Positions 24,488 through 48,270 of a DNA stretch of 64,000 nucleotides are shown here, in pieces. The position numbers and the translations under genes were made by a program. The first letter of the stretch is position 1. Each line of letters begins with the position of its first letter. The DNA lies in the NCBI GenBank assembly GCA_034530875.2, contig JAVRCJ020000030.1:24939-88938 (forward strand). The letters run 5' to 3'. The DNA comes from Nostoc sp. DedSLP01 (GTDB lineage Bacteria > Cyanobacteriota > Cyanobacteriia > Cyanobacteriales > Nostocaceae). Under the pieces are notes generated by a model that was not told where the DNA came from, searched no databases, and was given only the letters and a program-made list of their open reading frames with translations.

Positions 24488-25318
24488 CTAGATTTTTTCA
24501 GCCATCACGATAACAACATCTTGCTGACTTTTAGCCACTGCTTTTTCTGGAAACGCATCCCATGAATTATAAAACCCTCGAATTTTAAAGCCATATTTCG
24601 GAAGATTATTTTCAAAAAATTCACTTGAAAAACCTAATGGATGGACTGCTCCTATAATAGATAAAGATTGTTTGCCAAATTTTGTATAATCAAAATTTGG
24701 TACTTCAATCAAAAGTAAACCTTTACTATTCAGAAGCAAGTAAATATCTTTAAAGATAGTTGAGAGATCGGTAAAATGCTCTAGAGTATGTGCTGTATAA
24801 ACAATATCAAACAGTCTGCAATCCAGCTTGTTAATATTTTCAACAATCTCTACTCCCAGATTTTGGATTCCAAATAAACGGCGTGGCTCGCTAATTTCTA
24901 AACCAGTCACTTTAAATCCATACTGTTGTGCTTGATAAAGAAAATATCCCCAAGACGAACCAAGTTCTAGGAGATTACCTTCTGGAGAAAGTAACTTAAT
25001 TGCTTTGAGTCGATCGCCAAAGTATTTATCCGATCCTTGGAAACAATTGTTTTTTAGTGCAATTAATTCATCATTACTTGGTAGGCGAGTAATAGAACCC
25101 TCGGCAGAGTAGAAGTAATCATACAAACTAGATGTGAGTAAAGGCTGATAAATCGGGCTTGTAAAACATAGTTTGCAAGAACAGCATTGCTTAACTTCCA
25201 CTAAAATATATTTTCTGGCTATTGTTTGATAATGTTGAGTTTTACAATGAGGGCAAAACTCTTGTTTTCTGAACAAGGACTGTGTTAAAAATTCTAATCT
25301 TGGTAGTATGTTGCTCAT
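24488..25318 (-). CDS. Class I SAM-dependent methyltransferase with N-terminal Cys4 motif
   Basis: CPHC...CCSC; LLELGSSWGYFL; HTLEH; IEVPN. Confidence 0.85.
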   Translation of the reverse strand: MSNILPRLEFLTQSLFRKQEFCPHCKTQHYQTIARKYILVEVKQCCSCKLCFTSPIYQPLLTSSLYDYFYSAEGSITRLPSNDELIALKNNCFQGSDKYFGDRLKAIKLLSPEGNLLELGSSWGYFLYQAQQYGFKVTGLEISEPRRLFGIQNLGVEIVENINKLDCRLFDIVYTAHTLEHFTDLSTIFKDIYLLLNSKGLLLIEVPNFDYTKFGKQSLSIIGAVHPLGFSSEFFENNLPKYGFKIRGFYNSWDAFPEKAVAKSQQDVVIVMAEKI

Positions 25319-25385
25319 TTATTTTTGATTTACTTTTCAATCTCTAACCTTGGTTTTATTAAAAATAAATGGTAAAACTGTAGAA

Positions 25386-26420
25386 CTAAACTTGTAATTT
25401 TTTAGATTTAATATTATTGTAAATACTGAAAATTTCTAAAATTCTATGGCTAATTTTATTTTTTAATGTTTTTTGATAACCAGCTTTATTAATAGCTTCA
25501 ACTACATCAGAATTGTTTAAAAGATATTCAAACTTTCGTCTTAATTCATCAGGATCGGAAAAATAAACTGCTTCTTTATCTTCTACAAATAAATTTAGTA
25601 ATTCCTCACTTCTTTCACTAAGCATCAATCTGCCTGTTGCAGGAATTTCGTAAGTTCTAATGTTATGTCCATCTTCATTTTGAGGACGGAGAATATTAAG
25701 ACCCATTTTAGCAGAGCCTAAAACTTGAGGAATTTCTTGGTAACTGCACATTCCTTGACACAGACCTTTTAAAGAGGCTTCTTGGCAATGAGTATTCCAG
25801 TAATTTGAACCCCAAAGTCCTAATCGATAATCAGCGATCGCTTTTAAATATCGCTCTCGTTTACGGCTAGCATCCCAGTTACCGATAAATGCCAAATCGT
25901 ATATTGGATTAGTTTGTCGTTGAGGAAAATGATATTCAACATCGCTACAAAAGGGATGAAAAAAAGCTTGTTTAACACCATTTTTATTTAAACGCTCAAC
26001 AAGTTGCTGACTCCAAATAAAAGCTGCATCCCATAAGGGAAATCCACGTTTTATCCAGGAATTAGTGTGGGTATGATGAGCATCTACAGGGTTATCTGTA
26101 TAAAATACAAAGGCTAAACCATTTTGCTGTAAAGCCAAAATACTATCAGGGTGAATTAGCCGAGGTGAAATGACTAAAGTTAAATCAGGTTGAAACTGAT
26201 TTGCCTGTTCTACTAATTTAGAATTCGCTGACTTTGCTAGTAGTTGCCATGCTAATCGCCAAGCAACTCTATCCCACAAGCTACCCAAAGATAAATTAGA
26301 TGTTACTTCTTTCCAGCTGAAATGTTGTACCTTACATCCGAAGGCAGAAAACCCTCGTCCGTACAGTTCCTCGGTACGCCCTATTTCTAATTCTTCTCCT
26401 ACAATTAATACTTTTTTCAT
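25386..26420 (-). CDS. Glycosyltransferase, CgeB-like (Glyco_trans_1_2)
   Basis: YDLAFIGN; LNILR...HNIRTYEIPATG..MLSE; LF.EDKEAV.F. Confidence 0.82.
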   Translation of the reverse strand: MKKVLIVGEELEIGRTEELYGRGFSAFGCKVQHFSWKEVTSNLSLGSLWDRVAWRLAWQLLAKSANSKLVEQANQFQPDLTLVISPRLIHPDSILALQQNGLAFVFYTDNPVDAHHTHTNSWIKRGFPLWDAAFIWSQQLVERLNKNGVKQAFFHPFCSDVEYHFPQRQTNPIYDLAFIGNWDASRKRERYLKAIADYRLGLWGSNYWNTHCQEASLKGLCQGMCSYQEIPQVLGSAKMGLNILRPQNEDGHNIRTYEIPATGRLMLSERSEELLNLFVEDKEAVYFSDPDELRRKFEYLLNNSDVVEAINKAGYQKTLKNKISHRILEIFSIYNNIKSKKLQV

Positions 26421-26489
26421 TTCAGGTATTTTTACTTACAAAGTAAATCTAAATAAGTTGCCAACAATCAATAAATATGTTTGCTACTC

Positions 26490-27407
26490 TCATTTTTTAA
26501 AATATCCTACTATCCATTCTCCTCTTTGAAAGCGATTGCCTAAATTATTTATAATAATTGGTAAATAGTATTTGAAAAATGGCTTAACAGAAATATTCTG
26601 CCATTTTTTTCTAGTTAAAAGTCCATCGTAAAACATGGGGTAATAAGTTCTATCTCCCATGCTCGTAGTAAATACATTGATTGATTCAAATAGCATCAAG
26701 CTAGTCAAATTTATTAGAGATTTTGGAGAAAAGCCGAGAACGTGCATGTCAGGGTAAACAGCACAAGTTAATCTTGGTTTCTCCGACCTCAGCCGCCGAA
26801 ATATATTCACCACCATAGAACATAGTGGTTCGCAATTCGGCACAATAATCATCAAAATGCCGCCTGGCTTGAGAATGCGATGTAATTTTGCCAAAAATTC
26901 TTGTGGTTCTGGTACGTGTTCTAGAACATGAGATATCCGAATAACATCAAATGTATTTTCGGAGAATTCATCTAAGTTAGACGTATATTTAATATTAAAA
27001 TTATTTTTAGCAAAATAAGTACCATGTTCGCTTTCTTCAGCACCGAATACCTGCCAATTTTTATTTTTAGCTATTGCTAGAAATATCCCTATACCGCAAC
27101 CAATATCAATAATTTTTTTTCCTGGAGCTAACTTTTCTAAAACAGTAAGCTGTCTTGAATAAGCTTCTTCCATGTCACTAATAAAACTATCAACCCAACT
27201 CTGAGGGCAATCCTTAAGGTCTTCATACCAATCGTTATCATTAGCAGAATTAGGACGGATAGATTTTTTCAAAAAAGATAAATCGCAAGAATGGCAATGA
27301 ATGACTTCTGCTGACAATGATGTTCCAATTACTAAGCCTTGGTTTCCACATGAAGGACATTGATATTCGCGATTAGCTGCAAATTGAGTTAGTTTCTGTT
27401 CCAGCAT
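26490..27407 (-). CDS. Class I SAM-dependent methyltransferase with N-terminal Cys4 motif
   Basis: CPSC...CHSC; IDIGCGIG; HVLEHV; LKPGG.L.I.VPN. Confidence 0.9.
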   Translation of the reverse strand: MLEQKLTQFAANREYQCPSCGNQGLVIGTSLSAEVIHCHSCDLSFLKKSIRPNSANDNDWYEDLKDCPQSWVDSFISDMEEAYSRQLTVLEKLAPGKKIIDIGCGIGIFLAIAKNKNWQVFGAEESEHGTYFAKNNFNIKYTSNLDEFSENTFDVIRISHVLEHVPEPQEFLAKLHRILKPGGILMIIVPNCEPLCSMVVNIFRRLRSEKPRLTCAVYPDMHVLGFSPKSLINLTSLMLFESINVFTTSMGDRTYYPMFYDGLLTRKKWQNISVKPFFKYYLPIIINNLGNRFQRGEWIVGYFKK

Positions 27408-27503
27408 AAGTATCTTTCTTATTGTTATGTAATTTTTTTTAAATCAAATTAATGCTTTAGGTTCGCTAATTTATAACCACACATTTAATAAATAGATTAA
27501 TAA

Positions 27504-28694
27504 TTATGTTGATACCAGGGAATTTAAAGCTTGTTTGAGTCCTTGTATATCTTCTTGATAGCTCCACTTCTGAATTATTTGGAGGCTGCAATCTCCAGCC
27601 AAATTATAGTTAGCGATCGCCCAGCGAATTGACTCTGCTAAAGCCGCAATATCCCCTACAGGATAAATCCGTCCATTTTGTTTTTCTTTCACTAAATTCA
27701 ATGCACAGCCTACCCGATCGCTCACAACTACTGCTTTACCTGCATTCATGACTTCATTGATTGCTAATCCCCAAGGCTCGAAACCAGATGGTAAAACAAA
27801 TACGTCGCACAAATCGTACATAACAGGCATTTGAGATTGATTCTGAAAACCTAAAAAGCGAATTGACTGCCAACCTGTTTCTTGGGCTTGAGATTCCAGA
27901 GTTGGGCGTAATACTCCATCTCCCACAAACAAAAGGTAAGGCTCTGGCTCTTGCACGCCATCGGATGAAAGCAATCGATAAGCCGCTAACAAATCATAGG
28001 GACGCTTAACATCAATGAGTTTGGCAGCATAAAGAATAATCGGTCTATGTGGATCTAAATTGAGCGATCGCCGTAGTTCTTCGCGCTTAGCGCTAGCTAG
28101 TATCGCCCGCTTCTGGAAATAGTCATTATCAACGGCATACGGCATAGAAAACAGGCGATCGTCCTCAATCCCATAACTCTTGTAAAACTGATAGTTGGAA
28201 GTTCCTATGTACAAAAACCCAGCAATTTTCTCAAACAGCCATTTCAAAAAAACTCTTTTTAATTTTTCTTTAATGAGATTGCTCGGTTTGCTTAAGTTAT
28301 TAGCTTCTCCTCTGAGCAACACAGGAATCTCCAAGTGATTTGCTGCTAATACTGCTTGGATACCACAAAACCAAGACCATCCATGCACCCAAACCGCATC
28401 AAATTGACCTTGTTTTAACTGTTGAAAAATATCTTTAGCAAGAGATTGTTGTAAACCACTTTGCTGTTTATTACTCCGCCAACAGTCTAAAAAGTGATAA
28501 TCATAGCCCTCTGTTAGAGGCACATCCCACTCAATTAATCGTCCAAAACCTTCATCTTGATATGCTTTTAAAGAAAAATCACTGTAGAAAAAAACTTTGA
28601 GATCGATTTCAAAGTCAGCTGCGATCGCTCGCAACAAAGGAGCCTGATACTGAATTGGATGAGAAACAAAGTAAGCTAAATGCAGCATTAGCAA
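27504..28694 (-). CDS. Glycosyltransferase family 4
   Basis: SHPIQYQAPL; LPSGFEPWGLAINEVMNAG. Confidence 0.92.
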   Translation of the reverse strand: MLMLHLAYFVSHPIQYQAPLLRAIAADFEIDLKVFFYSDFSLKAYQDEGFGRLIEWDVPLTEGYDYHFLDCWRSNKQQSGLQQSLAKDIFQQLKQGQFDAVWVHGWSWFCGIQAVLAANHLEIPVLLRGEANNLSKPSNLIKEKLKRVFLKWLFEKIAGFLYIGTSNYQFYKSYGIEDDRLFSMPYAVDNDYFQKRAILASAKREELRRSLNLDPHRPIILYAAKLIDVKRPYDLLAAYRLLSSDGVQEPEPYLLFVGDGVLRPTLESQAQETGWQSIRFLGFQNQSQMPVMYDLCDVFVLPSGFEPWGLAINEVMNAGKAVVVSDRVGCALNLVKEKQNGRIYPVGDIAALAESIRWAIANYNLAGDCSLQIIQKWSYQEDIQGLKQALNSLVST

Positions 28695-28729
28695 GCAAGG
28701 TTGTGAAGGTATATAGTATTTATTTAGTA

Positions 28730-29506
28730 TTAATGATTGCTGTGAGATGGTTTAACTACTTGTACATACAGTGAAAAAGGCACGCTTGGATTCAAATAAT
28801 CCAATCGTTGTAAAGGTAAAGCGAGAAGAAATAAGGGTATTGCTGGTATCTCTCCCAATTTGCATCTGACAGCCACCATTGCCTTGTCTAAGGCTACTAA
28901 TAATGGAGAACCTAATCCTACACTTTTGACAATTTGAAAACCTACTGGTTGTAAAAGCTTTTTATAGCTTTCCAGTGTGTAGCCATCTCGAACGTGGCCT
29001 CCATCTTCTGGATCGTCTATACGTCCTAAATTATGGTCTGGGTGTAGTGAAAACGGACAGCACAAATGTAGAACACCTCCGGGTTTGAGGATATCATAAA
29101 AATATTTCACGATCGCATCATCCTTCTGGATATGCTCTAGAGTTTCACTACAAATAATTTGATCGAACTTACGATTTAGTTGAGATAGATCGTAAAGGTT
29201 ACAAACTTGGAACTGTAACCGTTCTGGATCGGTATTCAGTGCAGAGAAAAAAGTACGAGCTTTTTCTACTTGTGTGCGATCGTAAGTTACACCTAATACG
29301 CGATTACCCAGATTGTAAGCAGCATAAGAGAGCGCACCATTACCAAATCCAGCATCTAGTGTCTCAATTTCTCCAGAGCGAAAGAATTTTGGTAAAAAGT
29401 GGCTACGACATCTTGTGTGTAAATCAATTCCAGGAAACAACAATCTCTTGCCTAATAATTTTATTTGAGAGATTGGAGATTGTTCTGCAACTATAGATTG
29501 TTCCAT
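28730..29506 (-). CDS. Class I SAM-dependent methyltransferase
   Basis: LDAGFGNG; FDQIICSETLEHI; LKPGG; GGHVRDGY. Confidence 0.88.
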   Translation of the reverse strand: MEQSIVAEQSPISQIKLLGKRLLFPGIDLHTRCRSHFLPKFFRSGEIETLDAGFGNGALSYAAYNLGNRVLGVTYDRTQVEKARTFFSALNTDPERLQFQVCNLYDLSQLNRKFDQIICSETLEHIQKDDAIVKYFYDILKPGGVLHLCCPFSLHPDHNLGRIDDPEDGGHVRDGYTLESYKKLLQPVGFQIVKSVGLGSPLLVALDKAMVAVRCKLGEIPAIPLFLLALPLQRLDYLNPSVPFSLYVQVVKPSHSNH

Positions 29507-29619
29507 GCTCGAAATTTATCCCTTTTTTACACTTGAAGACATTTGTTAAATAGCTTTGTGCGTTTACTTTTTTCATTTAGAAGATATGGTGTTGGATAAT
29601 ACTTAATATCTCAAAACCA

Positions 29620-30597
29620 TCAACCCAGAAAAGTTGTTGCCAGCCGAGGAAGTCCGCGACTGTAGAATAAACTAGCCCAATAGCCACCTCCACAGTAGTG
29701 TCCAGCTACCAGGCCGGGTTCATCTGTACTTGGGCAAATTGCATAGGTATCTGGTAAGGCAACGGTATTTGATTTGCTTAATTCCATAGCCCATAGAGTT
29801 AGTTCAGCATAATAATTACCTGTACCATCTGCATTCCAAAAATGAGGATGTTGCAGATATCGCTCTATCCTCTCAAAATCTAGAGTATCTTTACGAGAAC
29901 GAACCACGCCAGGATTAAATTTTTCGATACAATCTTTTCCTAATAAATTTGCTAATTCTGTTGATTGCAAGCAATATCTATAACCATTATCAGGAGAATA
30001 TAAATTAGTTACCTCAGAAGGATATGCAGTAGCTTTCATTCCTGCAATCAGTTCTTTAGGGTGAGAAAAAAATAAGACGTCAGAATCTAGCAATATAAAA
30101 AAGTTATTTTTTGAGAAAAAAAACGGATCGAATAATTTCAGCGCAAAAATCAGTTGCTGACGGAATTGGGCACATTTGATTAGTCCTCTACTAGTAAAAT
30201 AACTAATCACTACTGAGTCTGCTGTCTCCCTGTCTATAATCTGACATTGAGGAAAAACTTTATTTAATATCTCTAAATCTAAATTAGTTAAAGACCCATC
30301 ATTATGGACTACTATTCGGCATGGTTGAGCGCAAAAATAAGCAAAAGAATATAATGACCACAAACCTTCATAAATGCGTTTATGATGCAGAAGCATGTGT
30401 ACTTCGATCGCACCTTCTCCTGCGGAAATAGGCTTGGCGTTTAAGATATTAGTTAGGTAGTAACGTTTAGCTAGATTCATCTTAATCGCTCCTGGAATAG
30501 TGAGCGCCCTAAGTTGATGAATCTTGAGAAGTGCTTTACCAAGTTTGAGCTTGCGAACGTTTGTTTGCAGCAATTTTATTAATTGATTTTCACTCAT
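29620..30597 (-). CDS. Putative GT-A fold glycosyltransferase
   Basis: VHNDGSL; KLFD; LLDSDVLFF (DxD); FNPG; late HY; stop/start overlap with the upstream GT. Confidence 0.6.
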   Translation of the reverse strand: MSENQLIKLLQTNVRKLKLGKALLKIHQLRALTIPGAIKMNLAKRYYLTNILNAKPISAGEGAIEVHMLLHHKRIYEGLWSLYSFAYFCAQPCRIVVHNDGSLTNLDLEILNKVFPQCQIIDRETADSVVISYFTSRGLIKCAQFRQQLIFALKLFDPFFFSKNNFFILLDSDVLFFSHPKELIAGMKATAYPSEVTNLYSPDNGYRYCLQSTELANLLGKDCIEKFNPGVVRSRKDTLDFERIERYLQHPHFWNADGTGNYYAELTLWAMELSKSNTVALPDTYAICPSTDEPGLVAGHYCGGGYWASLFYSRGLPRLATTFLG

Positions 30598-31937
30598 AAA
30601 GACACTATTTTATTTTTAGTATTTAAACTTGAATAAATCCTTTGCATTTCTTGTGCAACGGTAGCCATTGTTTGAGGTTGTCGAATACCAGATCTCAGAT
30701 GCATCAATAGATCTCTGTTGTGGCATAGTCGCTCTAGGGCTTGACTCCAAGCTACAACAGAAGCAGGTTCTACTAAAATGCCATTAACTCCGGACTCAAC
30801 AAGTTCGGCAATACCGCCTAAATCAGAACCGATTATCGGTACTTTAGCTGCAAACGCTTCCAATACTACCAAAGGCCCAGTTTCCAACAACTGAGACGGA
30901 ACAGCCAATAAGTCATAGTTGGCTAAGGTTGCTGTCACTTGTGCTGACGAAACTGGAGCTTTGAAGTTAATTCGGGAGTCTTTTTGTGCCAAACTATGTA
31001 ATTTCTGTTGGTAGGGATCGTTTGCGCCACGAGAAATGCCATAAATGTCTAAGCAAATTGGTAACTGAGGCACTGCTTGCAACGCTTCGATCAAAATGTG
31101 AATTCCTTTTGTCGGATCGAGCCGACCCAAGAAAGCAATTTTTAAGATTGATGCACTATGCTTTTGACTGTGGTTGGTTTTTTCTGGTAAGTTTTGACAA
31201 AGAGCTTGGCGAATAACGGTTATTTTGTGAGACGGGACATGGTTGACTAGCAAAACATCCCTGACCCAGTTACATACCGCTACAATACGATCGACCTCGG
31301 ACAGTAGAGCCTCCAGAACAGTATGGTGCAGGCTAACTAACTCTGTCATTCGCAAGGCTGTACATACTCTCCCCTGTAAATTCAAGTTGCCTAGCCAACG
31401 TCCTACCTGAGGCGGTACACTAGCGATCGCCTTAGCACTACTTCGATCCAGCCCCAAACCCTGTAACGTACACTGGGTGCAAGTATGCAAATCTATTTTT
31501 CCATCACATATCTGAGTACCCCATCGCATCATAGTTCCCCGTTGACAGCTCGCTGTGGGAGTATGGTAGGTAAACACAACGGGTATTTGCAGCTTTTTAG
31601 CAGCTTGCACTAACCGCAGGGAAACGCCACTTGTAAAAGCGTGGAGATGCACGACATCAGGCTGTTCTGCTTCTAAAATGCGGCTGAACTCCAAAGCAGC
31701 TTGGCGATCGCCTTGTCCATAAATTTCACGCAGATTTTCGATTCTTGGTGATAATGCAAAGCGGCGTACTCTTAGCTGGTTATGTAGGTAGAATTGATTC
31801 ACTTGCCCAGGAGCAGCCACCAGAATCTCAATTCCTTGTTGCTGCAAGTGCTGGGATAAAGCTTCTACATAGACTTCAGTACCGCCTACAGAGTCAGGGT
31901 AGAAACAGAATGGAACTTGAATAACTCGCATAATCAA
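30594..31937 (-). CDS. Glycosyltransferase family 4
   Basis: GGTEVY; PDVVHLH; FLGRLDPTKG; ETGPLVVLEAFA. Confidence 0.92.
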   Translation of the reverse strand: MIMRVIQVPFCFYPDSVGGTEVYVEALSQHLQQQGIEILVAAPGQVNQFYLHNQLRVRRFALSPRIENLREIYGQGDRQAALEFSRILEAEQPDVVHLHAFTSGVSLRLVQAAKKLQIPVVFTYHTPTASCQRGTMMRWGTQICDGKIDLHTCTQCTLQGLGLDRSSAKAIASVPPQVGRWLGNLNLQGRVCTALRMTELVSLHHTVLEALLSEVDRIVAVCNWVRDVLLVNHVPSHKITVIRQALCQNLPEKTNHSQKHSASILKIAFLGRLDPTKGIHILIEALQAVPQLPICLDIYGISRGANDPYQQKLHSLAQKDSRINFKAPVSSAQVTATLANYDLLAVPSQLLETGPLVVLEAFAAKVPIIGSDLGGIAELVESGVNGILVEPASVVAWSQALERLCHNRDLLMHLRSGIRQPQTMATVAQEMQRIYSSLNTKNKIVSL

Positions 31938-32045
31938 TCCTCTAGTGGCAAAATAATGTTATTTCTAAATTGACTTGCCACAAATTTCTCATGCTTCACG
32001 AACAGATAAGGCGTAATTTTTTAACTGCTGGAATCATTTTTCTTA

Positions 32046-33125
32046 TCAAATATGATTACTATATTCGATCCTAGACTGTCGAAATTTATCTATAGGTTCT
32101 TCTATATACAACACAAGAAGACTAGAAAATATCGTAGTTAGTATTACAGCTATCAAGCCATTATTCGTCTTGATAACCAATGTCTGTATTTGTATTAATA
32201 GCATGTGCGATACATACATCGGGTAAGATAAATTACCGATAAATCTATCTATTTTATTTTGACTAGTCAGCAAAAATAATGGTTTCAACAGAATCGCAAA
32301 AACTAGATAAATTAAAGGAATATAGATAAAACTTAAACTAGATTCTCCAATGAAAGGAAATGCAATTACTAAAAAGTTAAATAATATCCAACAACTGATA
32401 ATTGCTATTTTGCCAAGATGAATACTTGGGAAAAATTTTTCCTTATATATCAATATACCCAAACAGAAAAAGCATAACTGAGGCAGAAAGAAAAAGTAAT
32501 TCCAATTACTCCCAATAGAAAATAAAAATATTTTTAATATGGCAGTTAAAAAAATAATTATTAAAAGCTTGCTAGTGCTAATTCTAAACAACAGTGGAGC
32601 TAAAAAATAAAACCATATTTCTACACCAATAGACCATGCTTGACCAATTACTCGAAGATTACCACCCCAAATTAACCCAGAATCAGTTTTTCCTGTATCC
32701 ATGCTATTTAAAATAGCTATAGAACCATCGGTGTCAATGTAAAAGATAGATAGTAAATCTATTCCAAATAGTGAGGTGTTAGAAAATAAGGTAAATAGCT
32801 TTAGTAAAATTGGCATATTACTAAAGGGTTCTCCCCAACTTGTTGCAGGCATTTTGCCAAGATAAAGCCATACCATAGCAAATAGCACCCAGGAAGCAGC
32901 CAAAACTATTAAGTAAGTTGGAAGCAGCCTCAAAAAGCGATTGCTAATGAATGTTGTAAACTGATGATGCGTATATTTTTTGTCAAGAATCAGACTCATG
33001 TAAAAGCCAGAAATTATAAAGAAGAGTTGAACAGCATGATTTCCTGGTAGTAAAGTAGTGCCAAAAATTGATGTCGAATGAGACACAATCACACTTAATG
33101 CAAGTAAAAAACGTATAAATCCCAC
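32046..33125 (-). CDS. Acyltransferase family 3
   Basis: RFLLALSVI.SH; AV.LFFIISGF; RFLRLLP; WSIGVEIWFY; SYPMYVSH. Confidence 0.88.
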   Translation of the reverse strand: MGFIRFLLALSVIVSHSTSIFGTTLLPGNHAVQLFFIISGFYMSLILDKKYTHHQFTTFISNRFLRLLPTYLIVLAASWVLFAMVWLYLGKMPATSWGEPFSNMPILLKLFTLFSNTSLFGIDLLSIFYIDTDGSIAILNSMDTGKTDSGLIWGGNLRVIGQAWSIGVEIWFYFLAPLLFRISTSKLLIIIFLTAILKIFLFSIGSNWNYFFFLPQLCFFCLGILIYKEKFFPSIHLGKIAIISCWILFNFLVIAFPFIGESSLSFIYIPLIYLVFAILLKPLFLLTSQNKIDRFIGNLSYPMYVSHMLLIQIQTLVIKTNNGLIAVILTTIFSSLLVLYIEEPIDKFRQSRIEYSNHI

Positions 33126-33169
33126 GATATTCCAATCTAATTTTATGTATTTAACCTGACTTGAATAAG

Positions 33170-34183
33170 TTAAAAAATAGCGGTAGGTCGGCTAATAGCC
33201 AAAATTGAGGAAAATACAAACATTAATTTATTTAAAAACTTCTTAACTCGACGGTAAGCTAAAGCCATCGCTTCAGCCTGTTCGTATCCAAACCATTTTG
33301 AAAGCTGTCGCAAAGCTCTAGGACGAGAAGGAAGGTAATTTGGATTTAGGTTATAAATTATAGCTAGTACTTCATAAAACTTTGAGCGATCGTGTTCAAA
33401 GTAGAACCGGGCTAAGTGTTCGTAAGCTTCCAGAAGGAATTTTTGTCGCTGCGTAAATATTGTATCTGTTTGTTCTTGCCAAGCTGCTTCTACGAGTCTG
33501 ACATTAGTTAAACAACCTGCATAAAATTCTAGAGAATTCCGAGTTCCTAAAGAGGAGAAAGTCTGATATTTGCGATACAAAAGACAAATTTTTTCAGACT
33601 TATCTTTAACAAATTGAGCGCCACTTAAACCTAATCTTAGATATAGATTGACATCTTCGATACAATGCATATCTACTCTAAACCCACCAACTTTTAGAAT
33701 TGCTTGGCGACGAAACAGTATCGCACCAATTTGGCAGAAATTGTCAGCACCCAACAAACGGACTATCAGATCGCCAGAGTAATCAGGAATTGTTACATCC
33801 TGTGGTACAAAAATTCCTTTCTCCATTTCCTGATAAGCTTGCCACGAGCCGTACACAACATCTGCTTGATAACTAATTCCTATTTGTAGATGTCGTGAGA
33901 GTTTCCCAGGCATGAGGATATCATCAGCATCTAAAAACTGTATCCATTCACCACGAGCGCAAGATAAGCCAGTATTCCGAGCTGCACTCACCCCTCTATC
34001 TAAACTTGAAATCACTCTTATGGGCAAAGTAGAAGAGTACAAATTTGCTACTTTGACACTCTCATCTGTAGAGGCATCATCGACTAAAATAACCTCAGTA
34101 ATATTTTCCTGTTGCTGAAGGCTAGTTAAAGTTTCAGGAAGCCACTGAGCAGAATTATGACAGGGTATGATAACTGAAATCAT
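33170..34183 (-). CDS. Glycosyltransferase family 2
   Basis: ISVIIPCHN; VDDASTD; ARNTGL; FLDADD; IED. Confidence 0.93.
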   Translation of the reverse strand: MISVIIPCHNSAQWLPETLTSLQQQENITEVILVDDASTDESVKVANLYSSTLPIRVISSLDRGVSAARNTGLSCARGEWIQFLDADDILMPGKLSRHLQIGISYQADVVYGSWQAYQEMEKGIFVPQDVTIPDYSGDLIVRLLGADNFCQIGAILFRRQAILKVGGFRVDMHCIEDVNLYLRLGLSGAQFVKDKSEKICLLYRKYQTFSSLGTRNSLEFYAGCLTNVRLVEAAWQEQTDTIFTQRQKFLLEAYEHLARFYFEHDRSKFYEVLAIIYNLNPNYLPSRPRALRQLSKWFGYEQAEAMALAYRRVKKFLNKLMFVFSSILAISRPTAIF

Positions 34184-34258
34184 AGGTTGGTTCGTAAGCC
34201 CTGTTTGTCGATAATTTATTGTAGATATTTCGCTATGTCACTTATTACAAATTTATTC

Positions 34259-35926
34259 TTAAAGCTTTATTGAGGGCAGCTTCATAAACAATTGAGATAA
34301 GCGCCAGTGAAGCCATTGGGGTAGCAGAAGGTTTAACCGACCCATCCGACCAAAGCCGCGCATTTTAAGCAGTTTGAACCACAGCCGTAAACGTTCATCA
34401 AATGGCATAAACCCTACATTGTTCTGGATTGTTTCGTCAATATTGATATGTTCTTTATTCGGTAGCTGATAAAATGCGCGTTGCAAGAAAATATCAGGTT
34501 CGCCAAGAAAAATTCGATCGCTTGTTACGGTTCTCAAGTCTATCCTGGGGACAGTGTTGACCCTGACGTATAGATCCTCTAAAAAACACTGCCAATTACT
34601 TGTTGTATGTATATTGACAATCTGTTTTTTGGTTCTCTCTCCAAGGCACAACCTGAATTCCTCATTTTCTACTAAGTGTGACAGTACTGCTATGTACTCC
34701 TCAATGTCCCGCACGCGAATGAGATTGCCAGTCAAACCAGGCATATCAGCACCAAGGATTTGGCACTCATCGGAGTATGGGTAACGACTAACCAAAGGCA
34801 CTCCGTAGCTTCCTGCTTCTAGTAAGGATGTAATTGACACAAAGGGGAACGAGTCCACGTATATGTCAGCAGCCTGATAAAAAACAGCAGTGTCTTCACG
34901 CTCAGCAAATACTTTTATTCTTCCTTGAGTTTGCTGGATGGCTGCCGACCAATCTTCTTTCTCGCCGGGACCAACAACAATTAAAATACCTTGCTCGTAC
35001 TGTTTGAGTAAAGGAACGTGTGCATCAGCAAAATTAGTACCATCAATTGTTTTGTACTTCACTGCTCTGGCAATAGAGAGTAGCAGGATGCTCTTTTCGG
35101 GAAGGCCGAGCTGTCGTTTCGCTTCTGCTTGGGAAAGCACTCTTTGAATAGGTTCGACAATAGTAGGAAGGAGAGTGTTACGCTCTGCTTCGATACCTCT
35201 ACGTTCTCGCGATAACTTCATACCAGACTTACGAAGATTAGCGACGATATCGGCAATCCCAACTCCCAGCCAAAAGCGTTCGTCGGCATGATTTACAAAA
35301 ATAACTGGTGGAGATTTCTGTTTATCTGCAAATGCGATGATTGGAATGATGTCATCAATTGTATGCAAAACCACGACATCTGCTGATGCAGCAATTTCAC
35401 GCAGTCGTTTCGCTTTTGCGATATAGCTACCGATTGTTTTGTTCAGTGTGTATATCTTGCCATGACTATTAAATACAGAGTCTTTGAGCGATTTAGGCAC
35501 AGAAGCAATAGATTGCTGGGTCAACACAACTGAATGGACTCGCTGATTATCTTGCTGAATCCAGCGCCAAATTAGTCTCGAATGCCCACCTATGCTCCAT
35601 ACACCGAAAACAACATGCAGTATATTTTTTGGTGTTCCATTCAGAGAGTTATTTTTGCAGCGATCGCCCTTACTTTTTATCGCCTTTGTTCCAATTGTAA
35701 GCAGAATCTGTTCGAGTTCCGGGCTAGAAAACAAACCACAATGTTTAATGTAAGTTGCATGATAACTGGCTATACTTGCGTAAACAGCGGCCATATTATA
35801 CTTCCCAATCTCAGTGAAATGTCTCGCCTGAGAAACCAGGTTATGAAAAACCTCAAAGTTTTCTTGAATGAGGTGGGCGTCTTCTTCTTGCCAATGGGTG
35901 AGTGTATCGTGAGTTATTTTCTCCAT
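34259..35926 (-). CDS. GT-B fold glycosyltransferase (GT4-like) with N-terminal extension
   Basis: GGHSRLI; YQAADIYVDSFP...TSLLEA.SYGVP. Confidence 0.75.
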   Translation of the reverse strand: MEKITHDTLTHWQEEDAHLIQENFEVFHNLVSQARHFTEIGKYNMAAVYASIASYHATYIKHCGLFSSPELEQILLTIGTKAIKSKGDRCKNNSLNGTPKNILHVVFGVWSIGGHSRLIWRWIQQDNQRVHSVVLTQQSIASVPKSLKDSVFNSHGKIYTLNKTIGSYIAKAKRLREIAASADVVVLHTIDDIIPIIAFADKQKSPPVIFVNHADERFWLGVGIADIVANLRKSGMKLSRERRGIEAERNTLLPTIVEPIQRVLSQAEAKRQLGLPEKSILLLSIARAVKYKTIDGTNFADAHVPLLKQYEQGILIVVGPGEKEDWSAAIQQTQGRIKVFAEREDTAVFYQAADIYVDSFPFVSITSLLEAGSYGVPLVSRYPYSDECQILGADMPGLTGNLIRVRDIEEYIAVLSHLVENEEFRLCLGERTKKQIVNIHTTSNWQCFLEDLYVRVNTVPRIDLRTVTSDRIFLGEPDIFLQRAFYQLPNKEHINIDETIQNNVGFMPFDERLRLWFKLLKMRGFGRMGRLNLLLPQWLHWRLSQLFMKLPSIKL

Positions 35927-36241: not shown

Positions 36242-37264
36242 CTAAAAAGAGAACGCCAACTTTTCTCCTAGAAACTTACCTACTAACTCCATGTCACCAG
36301 TTTTTACCTCTACCCTAAACAGGACATTGCTTTTTCTACTACTGTCAGCAGCTAGTGCGTACAATTGACCAGAGGAAGAGAAAGCCAAGTCTTTAACATC
36401 ATCAATCAAATGGCGTCCTTGATATTTCAAGGCGTTCAGCCTTTTAATTTTGACCTTGCCCGTAATTATAGCTTTTTCCTGCAAGTTCATCGCGATTAAA
36501 ATGGGAACACCGTCGGGGCCAGTCTCAGTTGCGAAAATATTTCCTTTAAGATCTTGGCATAGGTTAGCAAATCGATGATTGAGTGGCAGTGAGGGTAAAG
36601 CTAGTTCATTTCCAGGAAGAATTTTACCTGTTGTGTAATCTAACGTTGTCATGGTAAACGGTGGAATCCCATCAGTTCCTACCAGACACAGAAGTTTATT
36701 ATTAGGAAGGTTGAGCAAACTTTCAACAGTCTGATTAGATTTTTTAAAGTCTAAAACTTTTTTCGCTCTGATTTTAATGTTATTACTATTACCACTTCCA
36801 ACAACAGAAACAAGATGGTTGAAATAACCTTTGTTGGTGTGAGAGACTGTAGAAATTACAACAGTCTTATCTGCAAGTACTATCCCTTTCGTAATGCGAT
36901 CGGACTCAGGTAAGAAGAAAGCGCGAGGTTGTTTAGGTACAGACAATGGATTGTCAACAGACACAACTGGCAGATTCACCTTAGAAAGAATCTTCACATC
37001 TGGTAGATTCACCTTCAAATCTAGCAGATTAGCTTTAGGCAAAACCTTTAGCGTCGCTACATCGATAGTATTTAACTCTATTGGCGGAGTTTGATTTTCT
37101 CGGTTGCGAGAGTTAGACGAGCTAGAAAGATTTAGTGCGTAAAGAATATCTTTGCTCGACTCACTTGACTGAGCAAGTACCTTACTCGAAATGTCGGCAA
37201 CAACAGTAGAAGTAAAACTGGCTGCTACGAGCTTGCCAAATTGACGGCGTTGTAGTGGTGTCAT
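36242..37264 (-). CDS. Tat-signal protein of unknown function (beta-rich, possibly propeller-like)
   Basis: N-terminal LQRRQFGK twin-arginine motif, hydrophobic stretch, VLA|Q cleavage-like site; DLAFSSSGQLYA blade-like motif. Confidence 0.7.
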   Translation of the reverse strand: MTPLQRRQFGKLVAASFTSTVVADISSKVLAQSSESSKDILYALNLSSSSNSRNRENQTPPIELNTIDVATLKVLPKANLLDLKVNLPDVKILSKVNLPVVSVDNPLSVPKQPRAFFLPESDRITKGIVLADKTVVISTVSHTNKGYFNHLVSVVGSGNSNNIKIRAKKVLDFKKSNQTVESLLNLPNNKLLCLVGTDGIPPFTMTTLDYTTGKILPGNELALPSLPLNHRFANLCQDLKGNIFATETGPDGVPILIAMNLQEKAIITGKVKIKRLNALKYQGRHLIDDVKDLAFSSSGQLYALAADSSRKSNVLFRVEVKTGDMELVGKFLGEKLAFSF

Positions 37265-37287: not shown

Positions 37288-40200
37288 TTAAGGAACAATC
37301 AGGTTTGCGCTTGGTGCTTGGGGTCTAGCTCCCATATCTGCTAAGATATTGGTAGTTATTTGCTTGACGCGATTATCTTCCCGAGCTGGGCTGACACCAT
37401 CACTATCTAATCCCCATGCCCATTGAATAGTCCCAGAAGCAAAGACTTTAGCTCCACTAGCGGCGGTGTAGCGGGCTGAGTGGGATATAGTGAAATTCTG
37501 GTTAGCAGGGAGGGCTTCTTCTCCAGGCGGTTCGTCAAAGTTTGGCAATAAAGCAGCAGGCTGGACTGGTGATTGCGATAAAGTGACAAGACCCGGAGGA
37601 GTAGAGCCGTTATTAACGATAAAATCCCATTCATAACCTACTAACAAACTCAGCTGATTCCCATTCTGGAGTCCTGTGTTCGCATAGTACGGATCGCTAC
37701 TATTGCTGACAACAAAATTAAAACCACCGTAGATATCTAAGTCACTACCGTACATGACTCCTAACAAAGCGTTTTCTGGCCGCTGGTTCTGGACGCTGCG
37801 AAATTTATTAGTGGCTGCCAAGGGGCCTTGTTGTTGGGCGACTGGATCTAATGTCCAATCTTGTTTGTAACAGGCCATCACTCGGTTGGGCTTCAGTTGC
37901 CCAGCAGCAATAGTAGAACTTTCAAATCTCACACGCCAATAGCAAGTATTGGCAGAGAAAAACCCTAAATTAATGCCGCTATTACGAGCAACCTCGACGG
38001 CATCGCGCATTTCTTTAGACCAGTACTCATCGTGGCCAACAGACAAGAATACTTTGTGACTGAGCAATCTTTGACCATTGGTATGAACCTGCATATTATC
38101 CGTATAGGTCACATCGTAACCTAGAGATTCCAACCAACGCACCATATTGTATTCCCATCGCAGAGGTGTATCGGCCTCGTAGGACTCTTGATAAGTTGCT
38201 TGGGAGAAGGGCCGATCGTAAGAAACCTTGTAAGCTCTTTGCCCGCCAATGCTGTTAAAGCTGTATAAGCTGTAACCCCCCATTGTGCTGTAGGCTAAGA
38301 CACAAGAAACGGCGCTCTGGAATAAAATATCAGCTGTGCTGCTATCATCGCGGACAACAAACCACACGTGCGCTATTTTGCTACTTGCTTGGTCAGTCAG
38401 CTTAGCAACGTAAATACCGCTAGTCCAATTATTCCCTACCTGCAATACGTAGGAAGTTGTCCAGTTACATTCGACTAACCGGGTATCAGGATCTATAGTA
38501 CAAGCGGCTTGAGTCGTACCATTGAGCAGGCCACTGCTCTTCATCAGCCTGCCGCCCTTGCCCCCATAATAGCCCAAGCGGTAGACGTCGATGCTAAACT
38601 GTCCGGGTTGTGCCAGAGAAACCTTAATGTCCAGAGATCCTCCTTTGTTGACACTGGTTGCGGAGGCATAACCAGCAATTTCTCCACTACCTCGGTTGAC
38701 AAGCTTCCAGTCAGTTGTGCCAGGATTTTGATTTTCTAAATAGATGGGATTGGGGTTGGCCGGAATTGCTGAAGCCGAGAAAGTAACACTGCCGATGCCT
38801 TCTGCTGTCGCTGTTACTACTACCCCTCCAGGGGCGGTAGGAACGGCCCCTAGTATTAAACTTGTACTTGCTTGACCGCTAGCATTAGTTACTACACTGG
38901 CAGACGAAAATGAACCCCCACCGCTAGTAACAGCAAAGTTCACTGTTACCCCTGGCTGAGGACTATTTTGAGCGTCTATGACTTGCACGACTAACGGATT
39001 GGGTAGAGGCGATCCCGTCGCACCAATCTGATTGTCTCCACTAAATTTAAGCAAGGCACTTCCGATGACAAAGGCTATGTCACGAAAATAGTTACTATTC
39101 CTGTAAGAACCAGTTGGAAAAGAATGTGTTGTTATGTTATATACGCCATTATTGCCATCTGCTACTGAGCTAAGCTGTCCATTAACTATATCTCCATTAA
39201 CTATGGAGTTACTCAATTGCTCGTAAGTGCAAACATAGTAAGCATTAACATTAACAGAAACCACATAAGTTGTATTGGCTGGGATGCTGACTGATGTTTC
39301 TAGAAGTTGCTCCTGCCAGCCAGAAGCTGTTTCCTCAGTAAAGGTGACACTTGCCAGCAGAGTTCCTGCGGCCGTCCAAATCTTACCAACATGAGTTCCT
39401 GTCTCGCTAGGGGCTTTCCAAAAGCGAATGGCGGTAATTTTTCCCCCTCTAGTGCTGCGGAATTTCATCCCTAATTCATAGGAAACGTTATCACTAGCAT
39501 TGGCAATACTCGGAACTTGAGTTGTCAGAACTGTTTTTATATTCCCTGGGGGAGTGGCAAGAGCTGAGAAACTAACGCTACCAACTCCGACTGCTGTGGC
39601 GCTTACTTTATTAGTCACATAAGTTGTTGCCCCAGGGCTAGCTCCCAGAGTTAAGGTGGTACTAGCCTCACCGTTAGCATTAGTTACTGCACTGACAGAT
39701 GAGACTGAACCCCCTCCATTGGTAACGGCAAAGTTTACTGTGACTCCGGATTGAGGATTACCAGCGCTATCTTTGACCTGAACAACAAAAGGGTTGGCTA
39801 AGGCAGTTCCGGTTTCAGCAGTCTGATTGTCACCGCTAACTATGTTAATAGTCGGCACGGCGACAGCAATAAAGTCGATGTCACGATAATAGTTGGTATT
39901 CCGGTAGGAATTAGCTGGGAAAGCTCCTGCAAATCCATTAAATACACCATTGCTGCCGTCTGCTACCGAGCTGAGATCGCCATTGACTATGGAGGTGTCT
40001 AGTTGATCGTAGGTGGCGACATAATAAGCATTGATGTTAACCGAGACAACATAGGTTGTATTAGCTTGAATATTAAGTGGTGTGTCGAGAGCCTGTTGTT
40101 GCCAGCCAGAACCGGTTTCCTGAGTAAACGTGACGCTTGCTAAGAGGGTTCCCGTTGCTGTCCAAATCTTGCCAATATGAGTTCCTGTCTCGCTAGGGGC

Positions 40201-40326
40201 TTTCCAAAAGCGAATGGCGGTAATTTGTCCCCCTTGAGCGCTCCGGAATTTCATGCCTAATTCGTAGGGAATGTTATCAGTAAAATTTTGAATGCTCGGT
40301 ACTTGATTAGTAAAAAGGATAGTCAT
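37288..40326 (-). CDS. 2x(DUF4082 + bacterial Ig-like) + N,N-dimethylformamidase large-subunit-like domain protein
   Basis: Two YELGMKFRS...ITAIRFWK...GWQ...TTYVVS...NY.RD repeats, each followed by SGDNQ...V.V.D..G.PQ.GVTVNFAV Ig-like units; C-terminal IYLENQ.PG, YRLGYYGG.GGR, W.SGIY.AKL, VSYDRP, SVGHDEYWS, G.NL.FFS.N..YW, GYEWD; no signal peptide. Confidence 0.85.
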   Translation of the reverse strand: MTILFTNQVPSIQNFTDNIPYELGMKFRSAQGGQITAIRFWKAPSETGTHIGKIWTATGTLLASVTFTQETGSGWQQQALDTPLNIQANTTYVVSVNINAYYVATYDQLDTSIVNGDLSSVADGSNGVFNGFAGAFPANSYRNTNYYRDIDFIAVAVPTINIVSGDNQTAETGTALANPFVVQVKDSAGNPQSGVTVNFAVTNGGGSVSSVSAVTNANGEASTTLTLGASPGATTYVTNKVSATAVGVGSVSFSALATPPGNIKTVLTTQVPSIANASDNVSYELGMKFRSTRGGKITAIRFWKAPSETGTHVGKIWTAAGTLLASVTFTEETASGWQEQLLETSVSIPANTTYVVSVNVNAYYVCTYEQLSNSIVNGDIVNGQLSSVADGNNGVYNITTHSFPTGSYRNSNYFRDIAFVIGSALLKFSGDNQIGATGSPLPNPLVVQVIDAQNSPQPGVTVNFAVTSGGGSFSSASVVTNASGQASTSLILGAVPTAPGGVVVTATAEGIGSVTFSASAIPANPNPIYLENQNPGTTDWKLVNRGSGEIAGYASATSVNKGGSLDIKVSLAQPGQFSIDVYRLGYYGGKGGRLMKSSGLLNGTTQAACTIDPDTRLVECNWTTSYVLQVGNNWTSGIYVAKLTDQASSKIAHVWFVVRDDSSTADILFQSAVSCVLAYSTMGGYSLYSFNSIGGQRAYKVSYDRPFSQATYQESYEADTPLRWEYNMVRWLESLGYDVTYTDNMQVHTNGQRLLSHKVFLSVGHDEYWSKEMRDAVEVARNSGINLGFFSANTCYWRVRFESSTIAAGQLKPNRVMACYKQDWTLDPVAQQQGPLAATNKFRSVQNQRPENALLGVMYGSDLDIYGGFNFVVSNSSDPYYANTGLQNGNQLSLLVGYEWDFIVNNGSTPPGLVTLSQSPVQPAALLPNFDEPPGEEALPANQNFTISHSARYTAASGAKVFASGTIQWAWGLDSDGVSPAREDNRVKQITTNILADMGARPQAPSANLIVP

Positions 40327-46130: not shown

Positions 46131-47411
46131 TTAATACTTTTCCACGGTTTGCCAAATAGCATCTTCTAAATAAGTACATTCATCAGCTTGCCATTGATAC
46201 TCTGGACGCTCAAAATTGTGCATCGTAACTTCAAACGGGCAAATTTCCCTGAGGTTTTCTAGCAGAGTCTCGTTACGACGGTTAGAAAACCATGTAGTTA
46301 AGGTATAGGAACCCATGTATAGTCTAAATTTGGGAATCTCGCATCGCAGAATAAACGTTCCTGGCTCTCGACAAAAGGGAGCATCAGACTTGAAAAACCA
46401 AAAGATACAAACAGCTTGTTGTAACAAGTTGACTATCTGAAAGGAAAAACGCAGACTTTCATGAGGTTCAGTTATATGTAGAGCAAACTCAAAGGTAATC
46501 GGTTTTCCCCAACAGTGAATTCCTCGTGCTTCAGAGGTGTGTGCTTTCACCCAAGCTACATAATTACCACTTTTGCTCGTAGGAGCTTGGTAATAACCTT
46601 GTGAAACAGAATCATCTTTCTGTCCAGCTAGATATAGTTGTACTGCTTTGCTAGTATGACCATCAAAGTCGACATTTCCTTTAGAAAGGAGTAGGCAGCG
46701 TTTGGTGAGTTGATTAATAGCTTGCATACTATGACTGACGAATAAAACTGTTCGTCCTTCTTTGGTTGCAACATCACCCATTTTCCCCAAGCACTTCTTC
46801 TGAAATGCCGCATCACCTACAGCCAAAACTTCATCGACAATTAAAATCTCCGGCTCTAAATGGGCAGCAACGGAAAAAGCAAGACGCACATACATTCCTG
46901 AAGAATAGCGCTTGACTGGGGTATCTAAAAACTTCTCAATATCAGCAAAGACAACTATTTCATCAAATTTCTTCTTGATTTCGGCTCTACTCATTCCCAA
47001 TATGGAACCGTTGAGATAAATGTTCTCTCTTCCTGTAAGTTCTGGATGAAATCCTGTCCCTACTTCTAATAAACTTGCTACTCGTCCTTTGATGGCGATA
47101 CGTCCCCTAGTCGGTTCGGTAATCCGGCTCAGAACTTTTAAAAGCGTGGATTTACCAGCACCATTGCGCCCAATCACACCGATGGCTTCACCTTGCTTAA
47201 CCTCAAAGGAAACATCTTTTAATGCCCAAAATTCTTCCCGCGTTGGGTTGGGCATTTTTTGGCCGCTAGGTTTAATAAATGTTTTGGCAAAAGATTTAGC
47301 ACCATCAGCAATTACATCCCGCAGGGCTTTGTAGCGACTTCCTTGCTCCTGTTGGTGAGCGATAATATATTTTTTGCTTAAATTCTCTACAATAATCATA
47401 TTTTCAGACAT
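46131..47411 (-). CDS. wzt: Polysaccharide ABC exporter ATPase with C-terminal Wzt_C-like domain
   Basis: [40 protein letters not shown]; ~170-aa C-terminal beta domain. Confidence 0.93.
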
Positions 47412-47427
47412 CTGCACGGATCGAAAG

Positions 47428-48270
47428 CTAAATTACGTCAGCAAATGTCCGTTCCATTCTGCGGAAGTACCAAATGCCACTTACTAATAACAGGGCAACT
47501 AGTCCTAGAGATAGTGTGAATCCAGCCCAGTAAAGTTGGGATCCCCCTAAAATTGCCCAGCGGAACCCATCAATCACGCCTACCATTGGGTTCAAATAAT
47601 AGACCAAACGCCATTGCTCTGGAATAATGCTGCTACTAAAACCTACGGGGGATATGTATAAGCCAAACTGCACAATAAACGGCACAATGTAGCGAAAGTC
47701 TCGATATCCCACATTCAAAGCTGCCAACCACAACCCTACTCCCAAGGAAGCAGCAAAGGCAATGCTAATAAATAGGGGTAAGGATAATATCCGCCAAGAG
47801 GGAACAAAATTATACCAAGCCATCAGCCCTAAAAGAATCATTCCAGAAACGAGAAAGTCTACAAAACTAACAATCACGGAACTGGCAGGGACAATCAAGC
47901 GCGGAAAGTATACCTTAGAAATTAAGTTGGCATTACTAATTAAACTGTTGCTACACTCACTTAGGGCATTGGCAAAAAACTGCCAAGGTAATAAGGCAGC
48001 AAATACTAGTATCGGATAAGGTGCTGTTCCCTCTGAAGGTAATTTCGCTAGCTTGCCGAAGATGATGCTAAACACGACCATCGTCAAAAATGGTCGAATC
48101 AGCGCCCAGAGCATACCAATTACTGTTTGTTTGTAGCGTACTAAAATGTCACGCCAAGCTAGAAAATAAAATAGTTCTCGATAGCGCCACAAGTCTTTCC
48201 AATATTGCTGCTCTGTTTGTCCGGCTTCAATTATTAACTCTGGTTTTGAGGCAATTTCTTGACTACTCAT
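47428..48270 (-). CDS. wzm: Polysaccharide ABC exporter permease
   Basis: YRELFYFLAWRDILVRYKQT.IG.LWA; LISKVYFPR; NPM.GVIDGFR; ERTFADVI. Confidence 0.93.
   Translation of the reverse strand: MSSQEIASKPELIIEAGQTEQQYWKDLWRYRELFYFLAWRDILVRYKQTVIGMLWALIRPFLTMVVFSIIFGKLAKLPSEGTAPYPILVFAALLPWQFFANALSECSNSLISNANLISKVYFPRLIVPASSVIVSFVDFLVSGMILLGLMAWYNFVPSWRILSLPLFISIAFAASLGVGLWLAALNVGYRDFRYIVPFIVQFGLYISPVGFSSSIIPEQWRLVYYLNPMVGVIDGFRWAILGGSQLYWAGFTLSLGLVALLLVSGIWYFRRMERTFADVI

Follow-up and report, generated by a model that had tools for sequence, protein, structure and literature searches.

A signal-less dimethylformamidase-fold enzyme in a Nostoc amino-sugar locus: a candidate glycan de-N-acylase with a predicted Tat-signal export partner

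The 64,000-nucleotide stretch of Nostoc sp. DedSLP01 analyzed here (contig JAVRCJ020000030.1, positions 24,939 to 88,938; hereafter the window) carries on its minus strand, at 37288..40326, a gene for a 1012-aa protein in which two DUF4082-Ig units are joined to a domain of the dimethylformamidase (DMFase) fold. The gene is part of a glycan locus that spans about 43 kb of the same strand. Our favored reading, to which we give a probability of about one half, is that the product is a piggyback-exported metallo-amidohydrolase that removes N-acyl groups from the glycan of the locus after its assembly. Judged from the residues that it keeps, the protein is very probably an active metallo-amidohydrolase. 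It is probably exported together with the product of the neighboring gene, a beta-propeller with a twin-arginine translocation (Tat) signal, and an N-acyl group of the locus glycan is a reasonably likely substrate.

The domain architecture and the motifs of this open reading frame (ORF) lie far beyond chance. Pfam recovered two DUF4082 stretches (E 5e-81) and two Big_1 domains (E 1e-17), and DMFA2_C (PF20254) matched residues 579-974 with E 3.5e-110 and 369 bits against a cut-off of 27. Local profiles place the first DUF4082 module, modeled as a jelly-roll beta-sandwich, at residues 5-155 (39862..40314), a Big_1 Ig spacer at 159-258 (39553..39852), the second module at 267-422 (39061..39528) and a second spacer at 424-521 (38764..39057). 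The DMFase-like head follows at residues 529-1012 (37291..38742) and consists of an Ig-like domain and a catalytic alpha/beta/alpha domain; all of these features are on the minus strand. The two DUF4082-Ig units are 66% identical across 261 aa. An original prediction, made from the sequence letters, had described this doubled unit and a C-terminal domain of about 490 residues, and Pfam and local profiles both confirm it. The gene is present as a single copy in the genome, the nearest named homologs of its product are from Nostoc (89%), and the product has no signal peptide. A hidden upstream signal peptide or a frameshift was considered and ruled out, because the open frame comprises only 1018 codons and AGAGGAG stands immediately 5' of the ATG. 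The top 12-residue hydropathy within the first 60 residues is 0.91, compared with 1.99-3.18 in 13 signal-bearing homologs.

Searched against the Protein Data Bank (PDB), a head profile of 88 homologs matched only N-acetyl-(R)-beta-phenylalanine acylase and DMFase (E 1e-30 to 3e-26). The head model has a pLDDT of 93, with the active-site residues in blocks of 92-97, and aligns with the acylase (8i5a) at Z 35.1 (rmsd 2.6, 414 aligned). With DMFase (6lvb) it aligns at Z 33.8 (rmsd 3.0, 422 aligned), the next PDB entry following at Z 17.1, and Foldseek matched the head to the DMFase-type fold with E 1e-21. In DMFase, Y399, Y440 and E521 are the Fe ligands, and the variants Y440A, E521A, H519A, N547A and E657A are inactive (PMC7686228). 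The two ligand tyrosines align with Y679 and Y688 (38263..38292, minus strand, as are the following), and H519 and E521 with H765 and E767 of the SVGHDEYW motif (38020..38043). N547, the proposed oxyanion residue, aligns with N793 (37948..37950), and E657, the proposed catalytic base, with E899 (37630..37632). The full set of six is kept by 120 of 121 close domain rows and by 135 of 153 distant ones; 15 of the other rows have Asp in place of Asn. The DMFase-type Tyr/Tyr/Glu/His set that had been postulated is aligned and conserved, its motifs lie where they had been read (LAY 38298-38290, SLY 38271-38263, SVGHDEYW 38043-38020), and the same holds for the catalytic Asn and Glu. The protein is a member of the PF20254 superfamily with the domain I and III fold of DMFase and all six functional residues in its sequence; the fold match suggests that the ligands converge on one metal.

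By its architecture, the protein is not a true dimethylformamidase of the DmfA1/DmfA2 type. It resembles the large subunit from Paracoccus sp. DMF (6lvb; PMC7686228) in the fold of domains I and III, in the six residues and in having a second protein predicted at the substrate-entry side, which in DMFase is formed by a small subunit of another fold than the propeller. Unlike DMFase, it lacks the pentraxin domain II (the profile skips DMFase residues 41-336), spaces its Tyr ligands by 9 residues rather than about 40 (37-40 in 19 classical members) and has a DUF4082-Ig stalk. It also belongs to a separate clade, sits in a glycan locus and has a predicted partner of another fold. No gene for a 15-kDa small subunit like DmfA1 adjoins it, the flanking gaps being only 83 bp to a DegT gene and 23 bp to the propeller gene; this negative covers the adjacent positions and not the rest of the genome. 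The short Tyr-Tyr loop and the missing pentraxin domain suggest, at the level of the model, a more open active site than that of DMFase.

The acylase (8i5a, 8huy, 8i59) is the best match in both profile (E 1e-30) and fold, and its name shows that a DMFase-type fold can remove N-acetyl groups. It differs from the enzyme described here in sequence (about 22% identity) and, as far as its database entries tell, in its DMFase-type architecture and small-molecule substrate. The claim of a new class of de-N-acylase or amidase stands in part: the glycan-linked clade described below speaks for it, whereas the family already holds a structure that by its title is an N-acetyl amidohydrolase (8i5a). The PF20254-type family comprises 8682 clusters at 50% identity, and is already named in databases. 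Genomes with a member number 24 of 401 in cyanobacteria, 42 of 251 in actinobacteria and 58 of 301 in alphaproteobacteria. We know of no glycan deacetylase with Tyr/Tyr/Glu metal chemistry. The literature covered, mostly from outside subscription journals, contained no account that links the DMFase family to glycans or describes the propeller.

Phylogeny and gene neighborhoods link the enzyme to glycan loci. A tree was inferred from 160 catalytic domains and the query, with two fragments dropped. Its loci were partly hand-picked and are related: 20 cyanobacterial regions stood for 31 places, 79 loci came from among the matches listed in a further scan, and 6 of 60 listed plasmid matches were used, as were 24 actinobacterial places out of 53 and 23 regions that represent 112 places in alphaproteobacteria. 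Neighbors were labeled with home-made profiles that may under-call in distant phyla, and no p-value is given since kin are not independent. The DUF4082 fusions form one clade (support 0.97) with two subclades of 19 and 18 members from four phyla. At least two glycan genes were found within 10 kb of 17 and 12 of these members, respectively (29/37), and a DegT gene near 15 and 9. The corresponding counts for glycan genes are 0/26 on the classical DMFase side, 0/14 in a short, signal-bearing cyanobacterial clade and 16/83 among the remaining members (DegT 5/83). As a background in the Nostoc genome itself, 363 of 2962 ORFs have at least two glycan genes nearby and 98 have DegT. The DegT, Gfo and epimerase neighbors that had been predicted for DUF4082-DMFase fusions were found across phyla.

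In the window, the enzyme gene follows the amino-sugar and N-acylation genes directly, as first noted, on the same strand and 83 bp behind the last of them. These genes, all on the minus strand, encode hexapeptide acyltransferase 1 (45581-46162), a Gfo/Idh/MocA oxidoreductase (44397-45425; nearest NCBIfam model UDP-GlcNAc 3-dehydrogenase, below cut-off), DegT-family aminotransferase 1 (43282-44400), hexapeptide acyltransferase 2 (42612-43298), an NAD-dependent epimerase/dehydratase (SDR; 41629-42603), taken as the marker of the module, and DegT-family aminotransferase 2 (40410-41636). On Rhizobium plasmids, homologs of the enzyme are accompanied by this six-gene module with its gene order unchanged; Wzx and Wza genes are present there as well, and one plasmid also has a type I secretion system (T1SS). 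One candidate, pRL90140, proved to be a beta-helix protein outside the DMFase-fold family.

The reverse test started from the module epimerase. Among 301 alphaproteobacterial genomes one has its ortholog, and among 251 actinobacterial genomes three do, one of these three being a scan center chosen for containing a homolog; all four genomes have a DUF4082 fusion on the same contig, 0.5-26 kb away. Among the 15 of 401 cyanobacteria that have the epimerase, the enzyme is adjacent in seven, 29 kb away in one and split over contig ends in another. The enzyme gene is inserted within the module at varying positions (L032, L206, L209-L211), and enzymes without DUF4082 are still found in it (L042, L135). 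In Streptomyces, a short homolog stands immediately upstream of an LCP-family gene (L133:7860-10874).

The steady neighbors of the enzyme are Gfo, DegT and the hexapeptide acyltransferases. In several relatives (L034, L137, L139, L145, L148, L202, L206, L207, L209, L210), a GNAT-like gene and an N-formyltransferase take the place of the second acyltransferase, and these formyl-type loci adjoin enzymes 75-89% identical to the query. No alignment column separates formyl from acetyl types beyond shuffles, and the columns were rejected as evidence of a specificity switch. Since the acyltransferase is swapped without a matching column in the enzyme, we infer that the enzyme either accepts both formyl and acetyl groups or cuts a constant acetamido group. 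In the Nostoc genome, sugar formyltransferases gave a single match, at 29%, and no UDP-GlcNAc dehydrogenase is close (best 26%), for which reason an N-acetyl group is favored here. Three loci (L137, L139, L142) additionally carry a metallo-beta-lactamase/Rieske or flavin-reductase gene.

The beta-propeller predicted to be the partner of the enzyme (340 aa; 36242..37264, minus strand) is encoded 23 bp downstream and starts with a twin-arginine signal (RRQF...VLA-Q). No Pfam or NCBIfam family was found for it; it resembles DUF4394/DUF6923 propellers, and a "water stress protein" cluster (0.89 in Atlas) is a lead only. The sequence-level traits of a Tat hitchhiker pair are present: a helper with a twin-arginine signal, a cargo without a signal, adjacent genes and TatC in the genome. 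Actinobacterial, Bacteroidota and short cyanobacterial homologs of the enzyme start with hydrophobic signals, and three partner-less cyanobacterial homologs start with DUF4347. Within the subclade of the query, 12 of the 13 members that begin directly with DUF4082 or Big_1 have a propeller homolog within 10 kb, and the remaining six members have none. Residues C609 and C620 (38467..38502, minus strand), a possible disulfide, are found together in 10 of the 12 enzymes with a propeller partner, whereas none of the 6 without one has the pair. Short cyanobacterial homologs of about 550 aa with Sec or Tat signals of their own lie outside glycan loci (L043-L050, L076, L100, L102, L103).

A complex model of the head and the propeller scored 0.85, the best of three controls scoring 0.00. 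Of 157 solved complexes, 116 reach the mark used for such scores, as do 2 of 215 mismatched pairs; for our own alignments these counts hold only roughly. At least 86% of contacts are shared between runs, the pLDDT of the partner is at least 83, and the complex would measure about 140 kDa. The predicted interface comprises the Ig domain and residues 688-697, a loop that begins at ligand Y688. On this model, the propeller is predicted to bind the enzyme and to cap the metal-ligand loop in place of the small subunit of DMFase. A parallel is found in Streptomyces MelC1/MelC2, where a helper with a Tat signal carries a hitchhiking tyrosinase out as a complex (PMC2758597, drawn on in part). The systems share adjacent genes, a Tat signal on the helper and a signal-less metalloenzyme, with export being predicted in our case. 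Their folds are unrelated, and the helper here is a 300-aa propeller encoded downstream, one family serving two unrelated enzymes.

The second of these enzymes is found in the same genome, where another propeller gene (G000:C44:29389-30393) lies 38 bp behind the gene for a signal-less 476-aa protein (G000:C44:27921-29351). This protein has kelch and GO-like E-set domains, is a homolog of the copper radical oxidase GlxA (E 9e-77) and keeps the Cys, Tyr, Tyr-His and His motifs. Streptomyces GlxA (4unm) is described, in the excerpt used, as a surface enzyme tied to a glycan synthase gene and with its own signal peptide (PMC3543389); the cyanobacterial cargo differs in lacking a signal peptide, and the copies behind propellers are outside glycan loci in the stretches seen. 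One further GlxA homolog of this Nostoc starts with a signal itself and is not accompanied by a propeller. The pair at G000:C44:27921-30393 corresponds to L197:5922-8394; elsewhere up to three such pairs stand in tandem (L233), and a few GlxA-like copies lack single catalytic motifs.

Propellers occur in 20 of 61 family genomes. Among those placed in fetched regions, 16 of 41 lie behind a DMFase-fold gene and 17 behind a GlxA-like gene; this count sets aside one contig-edge case, one fragment and four weak matches below 60 bits, leaves out three unfetched places and does not recount four from earlier loci. In metagenomes, a first scan for the propeller gave no match; of 12 close propellers, 11 lie behind a DMFase-fold gene and the remaining contig is too short. 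The RR motif is present in 50 of 55 propellers, a signal, judged by an RR motif or by hydropathy above 1.9, is absent from all 44 cargo ORFs, and the propeller tree splits by cargo (support 0.98). We tentatively propose, with somewhat less than even confidence, that in heterocystous and related cyanobacteria one Tat-propeller family provides interchangeable caddies, which would cap signal-less metalloenzymes of at least two unrelated folds, an iron amidase and a GlxA-like copper radical oxidase, and take them out of the cytoplasm, and that the amidase founds a new class of polysaccharide de-N-acylases. Some cargoes of both families share an N-terminal extension ending in a LIAQ-like motif, which the query does not have (L215, L217, L219, L220, L223, L224, L227, L228, L231, L232, L235, L237).

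Genes for COG0523 (CobW/ZigA-like) metallochaperones adjoin alphaproteobacterial DUF4082-DMFase genes (L130:12906-14090 and 19700-20932; L134:10676-11932; L154), and in Rhizobium there is one such gene per enzyme, beside the type I secretion system. These neighbors support a metal, not iron specifically. No CobW gene was found within 10 kb of the 19 cyanobacterial copies; three CobW-like genes lie elsewhere in the Nostoc genome.

The DUF4082 module was modeled with a pLDDT of 96 as a jelly-roll sandwich, and its fold is compatible with glycan binding without proving it. The lectin-like domain of Cwp84 (Z 12.7, rmsd 2.6, 134 aligned) and viral domains are among the top matches, and the N-terminal domains of two esterases follow with Z 9.0 and 8.5, the latter a carbohydrate-binding module (CBM). 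No CBM family or CE4/CE14 deacetylase was prominent in the fold lists, which leaves room for a relation, and the same body of literature mentions DUF4082 only in passing.

Several of our findings weigh against the favored reading. In six of the 15 cyanobacteria that carry the module epimerase, no copy of the enzyme is linked to it; five of these six gave no match to PF20254 or PF13313, although one is 87% complete, and control genomes gave none either. For this reason, the sequence comparisons make the enzyme an accessory of the amino-sugar pathway and no obligatory part of it. DUF4082 fusions also occur without any glycan gene within 10 kb (L036, L113, L131, L132, L147), among them giant DUF4082-DMFase fusions surrounded by genes for heavy-metal efflux on plasmids of Arthrobacter and Methylobacterium (L131, L132). 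Enzyme columns tracking formyl (n=7) versus acetyl (n=18) loci scored 0.44 at best, with a shuffled median of 0.55. At the predicted interface, propeller residues show no excess of conservation (0.66, against 0.63 elsewhere in the protein; p 0.36), and 8 of the 41 propellers have neither cargo upstream (L218, L221, L222, L225, L229, L230, L242, L243), that of L230 lying 39 bp behind a 307-aa gene of neither cargo family. Iron is uncertain because the rhizobial chaperone is nearest to the zinc chaperone ZigA. PHR domains match DUF4082 at Z 11.2-11.8 (best rmsd 3.2, 142 aligned), above CBM32 and F-lectins (Z 5-6) and true CBMs overall (5-8.5). Finally, Wzm/Wzt polymers are built in the cytoplasm, and a signal-less enzyme could act on such a polymer there.

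Some of these points fit an exported amidohydrolase that acts on other substrates, such as small N-acyl or N-formyl amides, amino-acid amides or foreign glycans, and resides in the locus for co-expression with an anchoring sheath. Both characterized family members act on small molecules, most members lie outside glycan loci, the module can do without the gene, and plasmid copies stand among metal-resistance genes. Against this stand the clade-specific glycan linkage in four phyla, the insertion at varying positions within the module and the reverse epimerase test, and we consider this alternative unlikely, with a chance that is still real.

A post-assembly deamidase or decarbamoylase, which would convert a uronamide to a uronic acid or remove a carbamoyl group and thereby tune surface charge, is a doubtful candidate. 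Its precedent is Bordetella WbmE, which cleaves amides, is encoded in an amino-sugar polysaccharide locus and edits the polymer after export (PMC2615507, used in part). According to that portion of the source, WbmE has a papain-like transglutaminase fold and no metal site and cuts a uronamide, while the head described here was assigned to the DMFase fold; the analogy is functional only. DMFase cleaves formamide, a primary amide (PMC7686228). The locus contains a carbamoyltransferase (7593-9365, minus strand) and an AsnB-like amidotransferase (13117-14925, minus strand), and with the latter 22 kb downstream of the enzyme a WbmE-like activity is still conceivable; two AsnB genes also flank non-DUF4082 homologs in L095 and L112. 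No AsnB is annotated, however, in a 66 kb Rhizobium region with two such enzymes, the steady neighbors are acyltransferase and DegT genes, and the Nostoc genome has the distant UDP-GlcNAc dehydrogenase match mentioned above as its best. The amidated or carbamoylated glycans included in the original prediction fare less well than the N-acylated one: none of the 37 clade loci has an AsnB or carbamoyltransferase gene closer than 10 kb, a distance too short to exclude them.

It is improbable, too, that the Tyr/Tyr/Glu site, in the same place and with the same partner, trims the polymer or sets it free by hydrolase, lyase or oxidase chemistry on the glycan. The next fold neighbors of the head (Z 10-17) are non-catalytic domains of GH42/GH164 glycosidases, Agd3, PelA and NDST1, and the sister cargo is an oxidase, but all six amidase residues are kept and both solved homologs are amidohydrolases.

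Still less probable is an ArnD-like cytoplasmic de-N-acylase whose substrate, a nucleotide sugar or a lipid-linked intermediate, has yet to be exported by Wzm/Wzt, the propeller leaving the cell alone. The missing signal peptide and the Wzm/Wzt genes would suit it, and the formyltransferase variants recall the Arn pathway, but homologs with signals or in a DUF4347 or T1SS context, the complex prediction, the paired cysteines and a module that works without the gene all speak against it. A non-catalytic surface scaffold or adhesin that only binds glycans is very improbable, since the near-invariant catalytic set and the versions in the module without DUF4082 outweigh the repeated Ig and DUF4082 modules and the cadherin-like domains of homologs.

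We return to de-N-acylation after export and outline how it might proceed. Iron or another metal would be loaded into the enzyme before export, and the signal-less enzyme would then bind the Tat propeller and ride through the Tat channel. Outside, the DUF4082 modules may hold it on the polymer or the wall. Metal-activated water would attack the amide, with E899 as the base and N793 stabilizing the intermediate, as proposed for DMFase, so that N-acyl groups (here N-acetyl) are stripped from the assembled amino-sugar polymer of the locus. The freed amines could alter the charge, cohesion or release of the sheath. By analogy, the enzyme most likely works like WbmE in its place of action and like MelC1/MelC2 in its export.

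The remainder of the locus contains further glycan genes. The Wzt and Wzm genes of an ABC glycan exporter (46131..48270, minus strand) lie upstream of the enzyme, and about 13 glycosyltransferases, a Wzy-like polymerase and methyl- and acyltransferases extend downstream (7593..35926, minus strand). The Wzy-like polymerase (19588-21057), Wzm/Wzt (46131-48270) and a divergent Wzc (52132-54294) occur in one locus, which would mean two assembly routes or one hybrid polymer. A 171-aa gene without a family (48303-48818) is kept just upstream of wzm in L031, L041, L051 and L146. Within the glycosyltransferase run lie a 325-aa gene without a Pfam or NCBIfam match (29620-30597) and a PhyH-family 2-oxoglutarate dioxygenase (17395-18363), possibly a sugar or acyl hydroxylase. 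The GC content falls to about 0.35 across 16-28 kb of the window, and a promoter and terminator scan at the locus performed no better than shuffled sequence. A second locus type is seen at an enzyme-propeller pair in L035, with parts in L038, L053, L215 and L223; the L035 set comprises a nucleotide-sugar dehydrogenase, Gfo, an acyltransferase, DegT, two EamA-like small genes, a flavin oxidoreductase, GT2 and UDP-GlcNAc 2-epimerase.

The locus offers a candidate natural substrate for the dimethylformamidase fold. In the part consulted of a genome survey, cyanobacterial homologs are listed as putative degraders of the solvent dimethylformamide (10.1101/2021.03.18.435917), and our reading, if true, would assign a natural function to thousands of proteins that are at present classed as degrading a synthetic solvent. 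It would also be relevant to the control of surface-polymer charge in cyanobacteria and rhizobia. The propeller may be an export tag for folded enzymes in cyanobacteria, and a carrier family that is paired with two unrelated cargoes would make Tat hitchhiking, and the quality control of metal loading, easier to study.

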